A stretch of DNA of 64,000 nucleotides from Escherichia coli (GTDB taxonomy: Bacteria > Pseudomonadota > Gammaproteobacteria > Enterobacterales > Enterobacteriaceae). Below are positions 1-63,527 of the stretch, in pieces. The position numbers were made by a program, and so were the translations under genes. The DNA is taken from NCBI RefSeq assembly GCF_003334815.1, contig NZ_QOWO01000020.1. One strand, written 5' to 3'. The notes under the pieces were generated by a model. That model made no database searches. It was not told the DNA's origin and saw only the letters and a program-made list of their open reading frames with translations. Position 1 is the stretch's first letter; each line of letters starts with the position of its first letter.

Positions 1-98
1 CGCGAGGCATCGTCTTAACGAGGCACCGAGGCGTCGCATTCTTCAGATGGTTCAACCCTTAAGTTAGCGCTTATGGGGTTTACCCACGCCTTTCCGTT

Positions 99-323
99 AT
101 GCATGGGGCGGTCAAATATCTCGGCTACGCTGATGAACACAGTGCAGAGCCTGATCAGGTGATCCTTATCGAAGCGGGGCAGTTTGCGGTGTTCCCTCCA
201 GAAAAGTGGCACAACATTGAAGCCATGACTGACGATACTTATTTCAACATTGACTTCTTCGTGGCTCCTGAAGTCCTGATGGAAGGTGCGCAACAACGGA
301 AAGTCATTCATAACGGGAAATGA
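99..323 (+). CDS. yeaR: DUF1971 (TehB N-terminal-like) protein YeaR, 74-codon C-terminal portion only; in-frame TAA at 60-62 blocks upstream extension
   Basis: ORF track 99..323 (MHGAVKYLGYADEH...); frame traced upstream hits TAA at 60-62; remembered YeaR is about 119 aa. Confidence 0.55.
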   Translation: MHGAVKYLGYADEHSAEPDQVILIEAGQFAVFPPEKWHNIEAMTDDTYFNIDFFVAPEVLMEGAQQRKVIHNGK

Positions 324-326
324 ATC

Positions 327-509
327 ATGGGCAAAGCAACGTATACCGTGACCGTCACCAATAACAGCAATGGCGTTTCTGTCGATTATGAAACAGAGAC
401 GCCGATGACTTTGCTGGTGCCAGAAGTGGCGGCTGAAGTGATAAAAGATCTGGTGAATACCGTACGTTCTTATGACACGGAAAACGAACATGATGTTTGT
501 GGTTGGTAA
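327..509 (+). CDS. yoaG: small protein YoaG (DUF1869), 60 aa
   Basis: ORF track 327..509; starts 4 nt after yeaR stop, consistent with a yeaR-yoaG operon. Confidence 0.8.
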   Translation: MGKATYTVTVTNNSNGVSVDYETETPMTLLVPEVAAEVIKDLVNTVRSYDTENEHDVCGW

Positions 510-657
510 TTATCACTGATCGTTGATGGCGCAATTTCTGCGCCATCGCAAAAAAAAACCTCCGTGATGCTCGTCACAAATCTTGCCCTCCCGATGTTGT
601 GCTATGCTTTTTATCAGCGACTAACCCGCTAATGCAAAACAGATAAGTGAGGAAACA

Positions 658-906
658 ATGGGCATTCTGTCATGGATTATTTTTGGGCTTATTGCCGGTA
701 TTCTGGCGAAGTGGATCATGCCAGGTAAAGATGGAGGTGGATTCTTTATGACTATCCTGCTGGGGATAGTCGGTGCCGTAGTCGGCGGATGGATCAGCAC
801 GCTGTTTGGCTTTGGTAAAGTCGATGGCTTCAATTTTGGCAGCTTCGTGGTTGCCGTTATTGGTGCGATTGTCGTGCTATTTATCTACAGGAAGATTAAA
901 AGTTAA
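658..906 (+). CDS. yeaQ: GlsB/YeaQ/YmgE family small membrane protein
   Basis: ORF track 82 aa, glycine-rich hydrophobic segments. Confidence 0.85.
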   Translation: MGILSWIIFGLIAGILAKWIMPGKDGGGFFMTILLGIVGAVVGGWISTLFGFGKVDGFNFGSFVVAVIGAIVVLFIYRKIKS

Positions 907-919
907 CGCTTAAATTGCA

Positions 920-955
920 CAAAGGCTGCACACAGGCAGCCTTTGCTATTTTTTA
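920..955 (+). terminator. intrinsic terminator downstream of yeaQ
   Basis: stem caaaggctgc/gcagcctttg followed by ctatttttt. Confidence 0.6.
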
Positions 956-964
956 GAGGTGACG

Positions 965-1039
965 TTACCACCATCCCAGCTCAGTGCCGAGTACGACAAT
1001 AATCGCCACACCCATCATAATAATCGTTGTTTTTTTCAT
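965..1039 (-). CDS. yoaJ: small membrane protein YoaJ, 24 aa (MKKTTIIMMGVAIIVVLGTELGWW)
   Basis: manual translation of minus strand; below the ORF-track size cutoff; matches remembered K-12 small protein. Confidence 0.6.
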   Translation of the reverse strand: MKKTTIIMMGVAIIVVLGTELGWW

Positions 1040-1041
1040 CT

Positions 1042-1140
1042 TTATGCTCCCGGGGCAGCATAGCCGCCAATAAAAAACCATGCTAAAAATACGACCGCTG
1101 TAATGAAGATTACAACCGGAAAAATAATACCGATTCGCAT
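1042..1140 (-). CDS. yoaK: small membrane protein YoaK, 32 aa (MRIGIIFPVVIFITAVVFLAWFFIGGYAAPGA)
   Basis: manual translation of minus strand; lies between yeaP stop and yoaJ. Confidence 0.6.
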   Translation of the reverse strand: MRIGIIFPVVIFITAVVFLAWFFIGGYAAPGA

Positions 1141-1172
1141 GTTATCACCAATCAAAAGGATGTGAATACGCC

Positions 1173-2198
1173 TCAGGAATGTAGCGCTGGATGCGCGACA
1201 AAAGGTGTTTTCTGTTTGTGTTTTTTCTCCTGATACATCGCAATATCGGCAGCATGCAGGGCACTGTCTGCATCGGTTGTTTCAGGATCGACTTCTACTA
1301 TGCCAAGACTGGCACCGGGATAATACAAATCAACATCACCTAAGTGATATTCTCCACGTATTTGCTGCTGAATGCGTTCTCGCAGCGACGAAATATCCGC
1401 ATTCTCGTTGTTTAGTGAAACAACTAAAAACTCATCACCGCCGAGACGACCAATAACTTCGCCATTTTGCTGGAGCGTATTAAGGCGCTCGCCAACCTGA
1501 ATGAGAAACAGATCGCCACTATTATGACCAAAACGATCATTGATTAATTTGAAGTTATCCAGATCGATAAACGCGATCATTATCTTATGGTTAAGATGCC
1601 GGGCGAGGGAAAACAGTGTCGTCAGATTTTCAAAAATCGCCCGCCGATTCGGTAGCCCGGTTAACGAGTCGGTATACGATTGCGCAATCAGCGCAGCATT
1701 GGCTTCGCGCAGCTGTTCAACCAGTGCCTCTTTTTGAATATATTGTGCAATCAGTCCGGCGAATAACTGTAAAACCTGTTCCGCGCGTTCACTCCACTGG
1801 CGCTTCTCACTGCTGGCGGCGCAAAGCGTGCCATAGAATGATCCATCCGGTAAGTGAATTGGCGTGCTCAGAAATGTGGTGATGCCAAGATTGCGTGCCG
1901 CAATACAGTCACCCCAACGGTCGGGGACTTCATCGCTGAAAAAGCAGTTTTCATCAATGGCGCGTTTGCATAACGAGTAATCCCACGAGACGGTAAAATT
2001 CTCCGGGATGTACATTTTCTGGCTGTTACGGGCAAACATAATATGCTGCAGGCGCGCTTCGACATCCACTTTGGTCAGGTAGGTTGATTCCATATCAGTG
2101 ACCATTTCCAGCATCTCCAGAAGCTGTCGGACCAGACTTTCCAGTGACTGTTCTTTGGCAAGGGATTGCGAGACGCGGGCGATAATCTGATCTGACAC
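1173..2198 (-). CDS. yeaP: diguanylate cyclase, GAF-GGDEF (DgcP), 341 aa with GTG start
   Basis: ORF 1173..2327 contains RLGGDEF; start trimmed to GTG at 2196-2198 to match remembered 341 aa protein (MSDQIIARV...). Confidence 0.85.
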   Translation of the reverse strand: MSDQIIARVSQSLAKEQSLESLVRQLLEMLEMVTDMESTYLTKVDVEARLQHIMFARNSQKMYIPENFTVSWDYSLCKRAIDENCFFSDEVPDRWGDCIAARNLGITTFLSTPIHLPDGSFYGTLCAASSEKRQWSERAEQVLQLFAGLIAQYIQKEALVEQLREANAALIAQSYTDSLTGLPNRRAIFENLTTLFSLARHLNHKIMIAFIDLDNFKLINDRFGHNSGDLFLIQVGERLNTLQQNGEVIGRLGGDEFLVVSLNNENADISSLRERIQQQIRGEYHLGDVDLYYPGASLGIVEVDPETTDADSALHAADIAMYQEKKHKQKTPFVAHPALHS

Positions 2199-2380
2199 GG
2201 AACAACTCCAGGATACGGCGGGTAAATGCTGATTATTTAATCTTTGCAGGCATGATAAAACATCATCAACAAAGATGAAACAAGACGTAATATGTTTTGA
2301 GTGAATGTAATAAAAATAGTGCTGCAAAACAAAACGATACCGCGATACTCTAATCTTGGATAAATATGTGAGATCAATAA

Positions 2381-2635
2381 ATGAAAATTATCAGTTTTGT
2401 TCTGCCTTGCTTGCTGGTCCTGGCTGGTTGTTCAACCCCTTCTCAGCCAGAAGCACCTAAACCGCCGCAGATTGGTATGGCAAATCCGGCGTCGGTCTAT
2501 TGCCAGCAGAAGGGCGGGACGCTCATTCCAGTGCAGACAGCGCAAGGGGTCAGCAACAATTGCAAATTACCGGGCGGTGAAACGATTGATGAATGGGCAT
2601 TGTGGCGGCGTGACCATCCGGCTGGTGAAAAATAA
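2381..2635 (+). CDS. yoaF: DUF333 lipoprotein YoaF
   Basis: ORF track 84 aa; signal peptide with lipobox LAGC. Confidence 0.8.
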   Translation: MKIISFVLPCLLVLAGCSTPSQPEAPKPPQIGMANPASVYCQQKGGTLIPVQTAQGVSNNCKLPGGETIDEWALWRRDHPAGEK

Positions 2636-2656
2636 CCGCCGGATGCTGTACTAAAA

Positions 2657-3004
2657 TCACAAGCTACGTAGCCAGTCGGCCAGCACCAGCGCATGGTTCT
2701 GCGTGGTGTTTTTTGCTGAGTAGAGCAGGGTCAGCGGCTGTTTTTTGGCGATGTCCGCCAGCCGCTTTCCTTCTTGCTCGTGTTGCGCCAGTTCTGCAAG
2801 ATATTGCTCGCGAAAGGTTGCATAATCGACGACTTCGCCGTGAAAGGCTTTGCGCAGTTCCGTTGACGGCGTGATTTCTTTATCCCACTCATCAAGGGCT
2901 AAATCGGTTTTTTTGATACCGCGCGGCCAGAGGCGGTCGACCAGTATGCGATAACCATCGCTCTGTTCAGCCGGATCATAAACGCGTTTGCACTGAATAT
3001 TCAT
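2657..3004 (-). CDS. yeaO: DUF488 protein YeaO, 115 aa
   Basis: ORF 2657..3025; start set at internal Met (MNIQCKRVYD...). Confidence 0.8.
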   Translation of the reverse strand: MNIQCKRVYDPAEQSDGYRILVDRLWPRGIKKTDLALDEWDKEITPSTELRKAFHGEVVDYATFREQYLAELAQHEQEGKRLADIAKKQPLTLLYSAKNTTQNHALVLADWLRSL

Positions 3005-3058
3005 CGTGTTTGTTCTCCCTTTCACGCATGATTTGTTACGTCACTATAGCACCGGATA

Positions 3059-4240
3059 TTAGCGAATTTCTTTGTCTCTCCCGGCGCAAAGTCCGAAAAT
3101 CGCCATCAGTAGTGAAAGTATGGCAACACCCATAAGTGGTACAGACCAGTTACCGTTAGCATCGTGTATTTTACCCATCAGCGGCGGCCCACAGGCTGCC
3201 AACAAATACCCGACGGATTGTGCCATCCCCGAGAGTGCCGCCGCCTGATGCGCAGAACTAGCCCGCAGACCAATGAACGTCAACCCCAGTATCATTGTTG
3301 CGCCGGAACCAAAACCGAAAAGCAGAGTCCAGGTGATCGCGTGCGCTGGCATAAAGCAGAGCCCAACCGCGCCCACTGCGCACATCAAGGCAACGAACGC
3401 TGCAATACCACGCTGATCTTTCACATGATGTAAGAAAAGTGGGATCAGCAAACCGGGTGCTGCTGTGGCTAGTTGCAGCAAACCATGCAGTGAACCCGCC
3501 TGTGCTTCGCTATAGCCGTGACTGATGAGGATCGCCGGAAGCCAGCCAATAATCACGTAATAGACCAGTGAGTTGATCCCAAGAAACAATGTGACCTGCC
3601 AGGCAAGCGGCGAACGCCAGATACCCCGAGTATGTAAGGCGCGCGAGGTACTCAAATTTGCATGTTGTTGACTTCGCCACTGTGGCAGCCATAAAAAAAG
3701 AGCCAGCAGAGGAAAACACATCAGCATGAGCAACGCGCCTTGCCAGCCAAAACCGTTCAAAGCCAGCGGCACGACCATAGCCGATCCCAGTGCCGCTGCA
3801 GCTCCCATTGTCAGGGAATATGCGCCGGTAAGTCTGGCGACGGAATGAGGGAAATCGCGTTTAATTAATCCTGGCAGTAAGACATTGCCTAATGCAATCC
3901 CACCGCCAATGACCGCTGTACCGCCAAATAATAAGTAAGGCGAAGGGAGAGAGCGAATTGCGATACCAGCACAGATCAAAAGTAACGCGGCAAACAGGCT
4001 ACGTTCCATACCAAAACGTCGCGCTACCGGGGCAGCCAAAGGTGAGATTAGCGCAAAGGCCAATAATGGCAGGGTGGTCAATAAGCCGGTTTGCGCTGTC
4101 GTCAGCGAGTAAGCGGAACGAATCGTATCCAGTAACGGTGCTGCGCCGGTAAAGGTGACGCGTAATGTTGTGGCAATCATCAGAATGCCAGCGATAAGGA
4201 CAATCCTGTTTTTGCCGCTTAATGAAGTTGAACAGGTCAT
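3059..4240 (-). CDS. yeaN: MFS transporter (2-nitroimidazole exporter NimT)
   Basis: ORF track 393 aa, multiple hydrophobic spans. Confidence 0.85.
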   Translation of the reverse strand: MTCSTSLSGKNRIVLIAGILMIATTLRVTFTGAAPLLDTIRSAYSLTTAQTGLLTTLPLLAFALISPLAAPVARRFGMERSLFAALLLICAGIAIRSLPSPYLLFGGTAVIGGGIALGNVLLPGLIKRDFPHSVARLTGAYSLTMGAAAALGSAMVVPLALNGFGWQGALLMLMCFPLLALFLWLPQWRSQQHANLSTSRALHTRGIWRSPLAWQVTLFLGINSLVYYVIIGWLPAILISHGYSEAQAGSLHGLLQLATAAPGLLIPLFLHHVKDQRGIAAFVALMCAVGAVGLCFMPAHAITWTLLFGFGSGATMILGLTFIGLRASSAHQAAALSGMAQSVGYLLAACGPPLMGKIHDANGNWSVPLMGVAILSLLMAIFGLCAGRDKEIR

Positions 4241-4336
4241 ATGCTTCTCATTGTTACAAACGAGGCTGTACCTTACCGTTTTTATTGTTATGTTGAATCA
4301 AGCTAAAATGACAAATTATCGCTAAGTTCGGACAAA

Positions 4337-5158
4337 ATGATGCACAGGTTGAATCTCAATGGCTATGAACCCGACCGACACCATGAAGCCGCGGTCGCAT
4401 TTTGTATTCACGCCGGAACGGATGAGTTAACCAGTCCTGTACATCAGCACCGCAAAGGACAGCTGATACTGGCGCTACATGGTGCAATTACCTGTACGGT
4501 GGAAAATGCTTTGTGGATGGTGCCGCCACAATATGCGGTTTGGATACCGGGCGGGGTGGAACATAGCAATCAAGTAACAGCTAATGCTGAACTCTGTTTT
4601 CTGTTTATCGAACCCAGCGCAGTGACAATGCCGACAACATGTTGCACATTGAAAATATCGCCCTTATGCCGGGAATTAATTTTAACCCTGGCAAACAGGA
4701 CGACGACTCAGCGTGCTGAGCCAATGACCCGCAGATTAATTCAGGTCCTGTTTGATGAACTCCCTCAGCAGCCACAACAACAGCTGCACCTGCCCGTTTC
4801 TTCTCATCCTAAAATCCGCACGATGGTGGAGATGATGGCGAAAGGGCCTGTCGAGTGGGGGGCATTGGGGCAATGGGCTGGCTTTTTTGCGATGAGTGAA
4901 CGCAATCTTGCCCGACTGATAGTAAAAGAGACGGGGTTGAGTTTTCGCCAGTGGCGTCAGCAGTTACAGCTGATTATGGCGCTTCAGGGATTAGTGAAAG
5001 GCGATACTGTACAGAAAGTTGCTCATACGCTGGGGTATGATTCAACAACGGCCTTTATTACTATGTTTAAGAAAGGCCTGGGGCAAACGCCAGGCCGATA
5101 TATTGCGAGATTAACTACTGTTTCCCCACAATCAGCGAAACCAGACCCGCGGCAATAA
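4337..5158 (+). CDS. yeaM: AraC-family transcriptional regulator NimR
   Basis: ORF track 273 aa, divergent from yeaN; C-terminal AraC-type HTH region. Confidence 0.85.
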
Positions 5159-8052: not shown

Positions 8053-9528
8053 TTAAATATGATGAATAATCACTTTGTTGCCCCCCTCGCTTTTCGCTTC
8101 GCGTAAGGCTTTATCTGCTTCCGTCATGACAAGCGAGATATTACGCGTGTCACCCGTTGAAAAAACCGTGCCAATACTGATGGTCATTTGTTCAGGAACA
8201 TCATATCTGTTACTAAAGCCGGTCAGGAGTTCGACATTTTTACGCATACGTTCCGCAATGATTTTTGCCTGGGCACTATTGAGTTCGGTAAATAGCAAGC
8301 CAAACACCTCACCCTCCAGTCGCGCTAAAATATCATCGGGGCGGATGCTTTGCTGGATAATATCGACAATTGAAACCAGCACTTTATCACCCACACGATG
8401 TCCCCATTGGGCATTGATGCGTTTGAACTGATTAATATCAACCAGCATGACACAGAAGTCCTTAACAACAGGTCGCGACAATAATGACTCTACGCTGTTG
8501 AAAAAGTAGCGCCGATTATAAATATTGGTCAGCACATCATGAACTGCCAGTTTGCTGGAGAGTTGCAGCTCCTGAAAAATGTTATAAATCAGAAAAGACA
8601 CAACAAACAGTTTACTGGAAACTTCAATCCCGCGACTGATATACCAGATAGTATAATTATACTCATCCAGAGTCAGTAGAAGTAAGTTGCAGCATAGCGA
8701 TGCCAGACATAATAATGCTATTAACGGCCATAGTTCGCTGGCTAATCGTGTGCGCATGATAATAAAGAACAGTAAAAATGCCCACAGACAAACCAATATT
8801 TTTGTATAGTTGATTCCCCAGGTCGCAGTATGGTTGTCCGGACAGTAATCGACGACATACAAAGAATAGTCAGCGTTATAACTGCTCAGATTGTGTGCCA
8901 GAAGGGGAAAAACTAAAAAAGGGATCAGCGCCAGCAACAGGATTCCCGTTTTTTTCTTATTGTTGTCAAGGATGTTGTCTTTTCCATAACAAAAGAGCGC
9001 CAGCGAGGTTAAACAAATAAAACTGAGTTGGCGGAAAATATAGAAAATAGAAACATCATTCGACTTTGTCTGGATCAGTGTACTGCCGTTAATTGGTTTA
9101 TGGATAATTACAATGGTTTCAACTAAATAGATAAGGCCACTTAAAAATGCAAGGCTTAAAATGAGTGTTGGTAAAATTTGTTTGTTAGTGAAATATTTCA
9201 TTAACATGAAAAGAAAAATGACGGCGTTAAGGAAAAACAAAGCCACAACAACCATCAGGTAATTCATCTGTGGGATGAGTTTTACATTTGTGTTTTCGTT
9301 ATATAAGGTAGTAATGCAAAATAAAATTAACGTCAGCAATAAACTGAAAATAAAAAAGCTTTGAGCTTTTAATTTTTGTGTACCCATAGAAACCATAAAA
9401 AGGAGAGCAATGTGAGTGCTGGATTTTATTGATGGCAGAGATATATAGTTTTGACCAGGATCAATTTTCGTTAACGATAAAAAATATTTAAAGAATAACC
9501 CCATGGAAATACGTGTTGACTGAATCAT
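8053..9528 (-). CDS. yeaI: membrane GGDEF-domain protein with degenerate active site EGEVF
   Basis: ORF track 491 aa; motif ARLEGEVFGLLF sits where GGDEF is expected. Confidence 0.85.
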   Translation of the reverse strand: MIQSTRISMGLFFKYFLSLTKIDPGQNYISLPSIKSSTHIALLFMVSMGTQKLKAQSFFIFSLLLTLILFCITTLYNENTNVKLIPQMNYLMVVVALFFLNAVIFLFMLMKYFTNKQILPTLILSLAFLSGLIYLVETIVIIHKPINGSTLIQTKSNDVSIFYIFRQLSFICLTSLALFCYGKDNILDNNKKKTGILLLALIPFLVFPLLAHNLSSYNADYSLYVVDYCPDNHTATWGINYTKILVCLWAFLLFFIIMRTRLASELWPLIALLCLASLCCNLLLLTLDEYNYTIWYISRGIEVSSKLFVVSFLIYNIFQELQLSSKLAVHDVLTNIYNRRYFFNSVESLLSRPVVKDFCVMLVDINQFKRINAQWGHRVGDKVLVSIVDIIQQSIRPDDILARLEGEVFGLLFTELNSAQAKIIAERMRKNVELLTGFSNRYDVPEQMTISIGTVFSTGDTRNISLVMTEADKALREAKSEGGNKVIIHHI

Positions 9529-9674: not shown

Positions 9675-10970
<1,296 letters not shown>

Positions 10971-17154: not shown

Positions 17155-17483
17155 CTATTTGTTAGTGAATAAAAGGTTGCCTGTAAAATTACAAAAACCT
17201 TACGCAGCGTCAAGCGGAATCGTGTCAATCATTGCGACAAATCAATCCTGTGCCTAAGCATTACGCGACTGACTCGCCTCACTCTTCCTTTGGGCTTGAG
17301 ACCACATGGGGTCGGCGCCCCGAATTTTAAAGGGCAATTACGATAAAAATGTGATTTTCATCACGATTTAGGTGCAGCCATTTCGTCGAGATCAAGTTTA
17401 GGACAAAATTTTGCCAGTTGGTGTTAATGTTTTGTTAGAATCAGTCACGTAATGTGAGCACGATTAAAGTGAGATGTGAGCAA

Positions 17484-62765: not shown

Positions 62766-63527
<762 letters not shown>

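Follow-up and report, generated by a model that had tools for sequence, protein, structure and literature searches.

The 64,000-nt stretch of Escherichia coli DNA analysed here (contig NZ_QOWO01000020.1 of assembly GCF_003334815.1; hereafter the window) opens with a yeaR gene that appears to lack its beginning. A preliminary description of the same DNA had recognised an open reading frame (ORF) of 74 codons at 99-323 as the C-terminal part of a DUF1971 protein and had put the length of YeaR at about 119 aa. It proposed either that yeaR is truncated here or that nt 1 to about 75 are non-homologous sequence, such as an insertion or an assembly junction. The locus therefore raises two questions: what is the DNA to the left of the yeaR fragment, and what has become of the gene? 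Our answer, to which we assign a probability of about 0.96, is that the window opens within a copy of IS186 that entered yeaR by transposition, between codons 41 and 42, and duplicated its target, GGGGTTTACCC, and that this target is a recurrent hot spot at which the element is found in both orientations.

The yeaR gene of MG1655 (b1797) has 360 nt and encodes 119 aa, in agreement with the length given earlier. The 74 aa encoded by the ORF at 99-323 on the plus strand are identical to YeaR residues 46-119, which identifies this ORF as the C-terminal part of the DUF1971 protein and its start as the internal Met46 of YeaR. The preliminary description also read correctly a TAA at 60-62 in the frame of the ATG at 99, which can be seen directly in the sequence, and the translation of codons 63-77 as VSAYG. 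It had noted that this ATG has no clear Shine-Dalgarno sequence; the 20 nt that precede it, TTTACCCACGCCTTTCCGTT, indeed hold no purine-rich motif. Alignment to the K-12 yeaR locus, where the gene has 119 codons, showed that the identity between MG1655 and the window does not extend over nt 1-98 but is confined to the DNA that starts with the target. The homology to yeaR begins at nt 75/76, not at about 99: the frame-3 translation from nt 75 reads GVYPRLSVMHGAV and continues as YeaR from residue 38, with residues 38-41 supplied by the duplicated target. Nt 1-75 are unrelated to yeaR, and the final two-thirds of the gene are left in the window. Both the truncation and the non-homologous nature of the first 75 or so nucleotides hold, as the end of an IS186 element occupies nt 1-74 or 1-75 and sits after yeaR codon 41. 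The earlier suggestion of an insertion was right in kind, but it named no element and did not recognise that the target is struck repeatedly; the element is identified here as IS186 and the site as one of its hot spots.

A search with the first 75 nt found IS186 ends of approximately 100% identity at 8,421 places, spread over 2,144 E. coli genomes, which excludes a feature that arose by chance. Since these places are multiple and lie on chromosomes and plasmids alike, the segment behaves as a mobile element. The median number of places per IS186-bearing genome was 3. The complete genome that best matches the window is that of strain 52F4 (NZ_CM147848.1; calf, Switzerland), which is identical to it over nt 1-5000 and shows 6 differences over the first 50 kb. 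In 52F4 the IS186 copy at yeaR is 1338 bp long, and its transposase is annotated by PGAP as 'IS4-like element IS421 family transposase'. The PGAP gene order of this strain is leuE, a DUF1971 pseudogene 'missing C-terminus' (41 codons), the transposase, yeaR 'missing N-terminus', yoaG and yeaQ. The right-hand end of IS186 in the window (1-74, plus strand) is 100% identical to 52F4 L001 4001-4074. The element is bounded by terminal inverted repeats of 23 bp. The right one in the window, CAACCCTTAAGTTAGCGCTTATG (53-75, plus strand), pairs perfectly as reverse complement with the left one in 52F4 L001, CATAAGCGCTAACTTAAGGGTTG, with 23/23 positions complementary, and the in-frame TAA at 60-62 falls within this right repeat. 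It is followed on the plus strand by the right copy of the target-site duplication at 75-85, equivalent to nt 112-122 of yeaR (codons 38-41). The same 11-bp direct repeat flanks the 52F4 element at L001 2726-2736 and 4075-4085 and is present in one copy in MG1655. Window position 75 is a G that can be counted with either the inverted repeat or the duplication; the element accordingly measures 1338 or 1339 bp, and the duplicated target 11 or 10 bp. The IS186 copies of 52F4, CV601 and 720632 are all 1338 bp long, carry an annotated IS4-type transposase and are 100% identical to one another. In 52F4 the transposase gene lies upstream of the part that corresponds to the window and is read in the same sense as yeaR. 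Of its own copy the window holds the last 75 nt; the left junction and the transposase gene of that copy are taken from near-identical genomes and are presumably the same. A search of the 64-kb window for a second IS186 end found none.

The comparison with other genomes yielded several further observations. The differences between the window and 52F4 in the first 50 kb are single-base differences at 10049, 13446, 20619, 23516, 25240 and 37730. Among the complete E. coli genomes, none was identical to the window over nt 1-25000. Five genomes (NZ_CP151548.1, NZ_CP154596.1, NZ_CP195330.1, NZ_CM136148.1 and NZ_CM192142.1) matched this interval in two pieces over a span of about 25,775 bp. The roughly 775 extra bp have the size of an IS1-type insertion, and in three of the five genomes cdgI was absent from the five displayed gene names. 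The spacer between yoaG and yeaQ contains a run of nine A at window 550-558, where MG1655 has eight; this difference accounts for the 999/1000-nt matches to O16:H48 strains. On the minus strand, the ORF list gives dgcP as 1173-2327 (384 codons, TTG start) and the annotation as 1173-2198 (341 codons), an ordinary ambiguity of the start codon.

When the element was deleted in silico from the 52F4 sequence together with a single copy of the repeat, a 360-nt ORF with 0 differences from MG1655 yeaR (119 aa) was restored. The 175 nt upstream of yeaR, which hold the promoter region of the operon, are also identical in 52F4 and MG1655. The reconstructed YeaR matches PDB entry 3bb6, 'Uncharacterized protein yeaR', over residues 1-119, and the Pfam domain DUF1971 (PF09313) was located at residues 12-96 (E = 7.6e-23). 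The insertion cuts this domain after 30 of its 85 residues. In 52F4, reading of the 5' fragment would run 13 codons into the IS and then meet a stop codon. The 3' fragment, which comprises codons 42-119 and the stop codon (window 86-323, plus strand), is blocked upstream by the TAA in the inverted repeat, and its sole start is the internal ATG without a ribosome-binding site. The residual 74-codon ORF that begins at this ATG lacks the first 34 of the 85 DUF1971 residues and is most likely not a functional gene. PGAP likewise annotates window 75-323 as a pseudogene 'missing N-terminus'. An intact translatable yeaR coding sequence is thus absent: the gene is split after codon 41, the TAA stands at 60-62 and the ATG at 99 has no Shine-Dalgarno sequence. 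Because the 3' fragment has no usable start, yeaR would be a pseudogene in this strain, and the function of YeaR would be lost.

The second gene of the yeaR-yoaG operon, yoaG (DUF1869; 327-509, plus strand), is intact according to both the ORF list and the 52F4 annotation. In the split locus it lies about 1.35 kb farther from the operon promoter, with IS186 in between. This promoter responds to nitrate, nitrite and NO, according to references cited in PMC6307192. Since the element cuts yoaG off from the promoter, the regulated expression of yoaG is probably reduced or lost through a polar effect. A simple consensus scan of IS186 and both junctions found no promoter-like site, a result that says little either way on whether an outward promoter drives yoaG, and two weak terminator-like sites, both inside the IS.

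To determine how frequent the insertion is, 5,426 complete E. coli genomes were searched with junction queries of 200 nt and an empty-site query of 400 nt. The site is intact in 4,965 of them. IS186 occupies exactly the same position in the orientation of the window in 197 genomes and in the inverted orientation in 251, and the resulting 448 carriers are consistent with the 455 genomes that have a split site. Shorter junction queries of 80-90 nt had returned 296 and 473 genomes. These counts could not be reconciled with 455 split sites and were discarded; the opposite orientation matches 63 nt of the short queries, that is, 79% of an 80-nt and 70% of a 90-nt query. The junction nucleotide and the duplication are common to both orientations, and the presence of both at the same nucleotide requires at least two events. 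The inverted insertions lie on at least three yeaR haplotypes, whose flanking 123 nt show identities of 100%, 98.4% and 97.6%; the 98.4% haplotype is that of BLR(DE3), a derivative of E. coli B. MG1655 has an empty site, and CV601 and its O16:H48 relatives have an occupied one. In CV601 (O16:H48), which we take to be a K-12 derivative, the junction and the orientation are identical to those of the window. As the insertion is repeated and found in both orientations, the distribution among genomes identifies the yeaR site as an IS186 hot spot rather than a single inherited scar.

The target itself, GGGGTTTACCC, has a short AT-rich core between a G run and a C run. IS186 is reported to insert at 5'-GGGG(N6/N7)CCCC-3', and its transposase recognises the GC-rich flanks, not the duplicated core; the flanks are palindromic, and the element therefore inserts in either orientation (PMC5009759). 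In the same study, 7 of 59 sites had one or two mismatches in the flanks, cores of 4 or 5 bp were rare, and individual sites were struck many times independently, one of them 16 times. The MG1655 genome contains only 19 GGGG(N6)CCCC sites (PMC5009759). Compared with this consensus, the yeaR site CCCGGGGGTTTACCCACG reads G5-TTTA-C3 or, with one flank mismatch, GGGG-GTTTAC-CCAC. To our reading the yeaR target is near-consensus and not canonical. An earlier paper on the lon hot spot reportedly gave the consensus as (G)>=4 (N)3-6 (C)>=4. Elsewhere in the 64 kb, the sole canonical motif of the form GGGG(N6)CCCC is GGGGTCGGCGCCCC at 17308-17321, which is unoccupied and lies between gapA and msrB. 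A further sequence, GGGGTTAACCC at 62999-63009, has a G4-N4-C3 layout like that of the yeaR target; it lies within chbG and is unoccupied here.

Insertion of IS186 into yeaR has been described before. Lee et al. (2016, PMC5009759) reported it in PFM2, a derivative of MG1655, and Hoeksema et al. (2018, PMC6307192) found that the element had transposed into yeaR in laboratory-evolved MG1655 and suggested an association with enrofloxacin; PCR primers for yeaR are listed in the methods of the latter paper. The yeaR::IS186 allele is thus an ordinary polymorphism that has already been published.

These findings have to be weighed against four other accounts of the locus. According to one, the junction at nt 75 is an artefact of assembly or scaffolding at a repeated IS copy, and yeaR is intact in the organism. 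IS186 is indeed a multi-copy element (median 3), repeats break assemblies, and the window starts inside the element. However, 197 complete genomes, produced by unrelated projects, have exactly this junction, accompanied by the matching target-site duplication on the other side. In 52F4, CV601 and 720632 the 11-bp yeaR direct repeat is found at both junctions, which is the signature of a real transposition, and the insertion has been published independently (PMC5009759; PMC6307192). The artefact is hardly credible on this evidence, the assembly junction offered in the preliminary description is set aside, and the feature is genuine. Equally implausible is the view that yeaR is a true gene of 74 codons in this lineage, preceded by ordinary intergenic DNA. 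An ATG-initiated ORF of this length is present, but it has no ribosome-binding site and is missing the first 34 DUF1971 residues; the DNA upstream of it is IS186, and PGAP calls the fragment a pseudogene. Together with the cut domain and the restoration of the gene in silico, the 4,965 genomes that carry a gene of 119 codons refute the short gene.

The other two accounts accept the insertion and concern its history. A single ancient insertion could have been inherited and spread by recombination without the site being a recurrent hot spot. In favour of this, many carriers of the same orientation are nearly identical in their flanks over 25 kb, so part of the 197 genomes are certainly clonal, and the three IS copies compared are 100% identical. 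Such a history is nevertheless very improbable, because both orientations at the same nucleotide need at least two events and the inverted copies are spread over three or more yeaR haplotypes. Moreover, the site is empty in MG1655 itself but occupied in PFM2, which derives from it, and in lines evolved from MG1655 (PMC5009759; PMC6307192). It is also possible, but unlikely, that target preference alone is insufficient and that selection has favoured loss of YeaR and YoaG or altered expression of neighbouring genes, for example under fluoroquinolone. In its strongest form, which we consider just as doubtful, yeaR::IS186 would be a recurrent adaptive switch rather than neutral noise at a hot spot: selection would favour strains in which the yeaR-yoaG operon, induced by NO and nitrate, is lost or rewired, for instance in lineages exposed to antibiotics or adapted to the gut. 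In favour of selection, IS186 occupies the site in about 8% of complete genomes, in both orientations, despite the non-canonical motif. On the other hand, PFM2, the founder of mutation-accumulation lines, already had the insertion, and its description does not mention antibiotic selection (PMC5009759). IS186 strikes a few specific sites repeatedly under minimal selection, as in the case of the 16 insertions at one site (PMC5009759). The strains with secondary resistance in the enrofloxacin study were derived from those with primary resistance (PMC6307192), and in our reading this shared ancestry inflates the apparent number of repeats. In addition, no known mechanism ties YeaR to quinolones (PMC6307192). 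The high occupancy of the yeaR site probably reflects target preference in the main, rather than selection.

Taken together, a recurrent insertion at a preferred target explains the locus as follows. IS186, a 1338-bp element of the IS4 family with a DDE transposase, inserted itself into yeaR between codons 41 and 42 and duplicated a target made of a G run, an AT-rich core and a C run, the kind of site that its transposase prefers. The insertion splits the DUF1971 domain and would leave yeaR as a pseudogene. The element at the same time separates yoaG from the nitrate/nitrite/NO-responsive promoter of the operon, and the regulated expression of this gene is probably lowered or lost. The same event has recurred, in either orientation, at the yeaR hot spot.

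The insertion in this strain matters little beyond correct annotation: the entry for yeaR should describe a pseudogene into which IS186 has inserted, no gene should be annotated at the 74-codon ORF, and the entry for yoaG should note the separation of this gene from its promoter. The 197 insertions in one orientation and the 251 in the other, at one nucleotide among 5,426 genomes, may provide a small datum on the target choice of IS186, as they show that a non-canonical site of the form G5-TTTA-C3 can serve as a strong hot spot in nature. The same counts caution against taking the repeated appearance of yeaR::IS186 in evolution experiments as evidence of selection.

Compared with the IS186 of E. 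coli K-12 and B, the element described here has the same perfect inverted repeats of 23 bp, the same length of 1338 bp, the same single transposase ORF (WP_001300563.1), a target duplication of 10-11 bp and a target with a G run and a C run. No difference was found within the element, of which the window holds the last 75 nt only. The published alleles of PFM2 and evolved MG1655 involve the same element and the same gene as in the window (PMC5009759; PMC6307192); these papers give neither the nucleotide position nor the orientation in their text, and the likeness established is that of element and gene. The window comes from another strain, which differs from MG1655 by A9 instead of A8 at 550-558. 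Further hot spots of IS186 are the lon promoter, fimA and menC (PMC5009759; lon is cited in PMC6307192). The yeaR hot spot differs from these in that its target is G5-TTTA-C3, not the canonical GGGG(N6/7)CCCC, and in that it lies inside a coding sequence of unknown function, without an established phenotype. It resembles them in that insertion is repeated, site-specific and independent of orientation, and occurs at a target built of a G run, a core and a C run.
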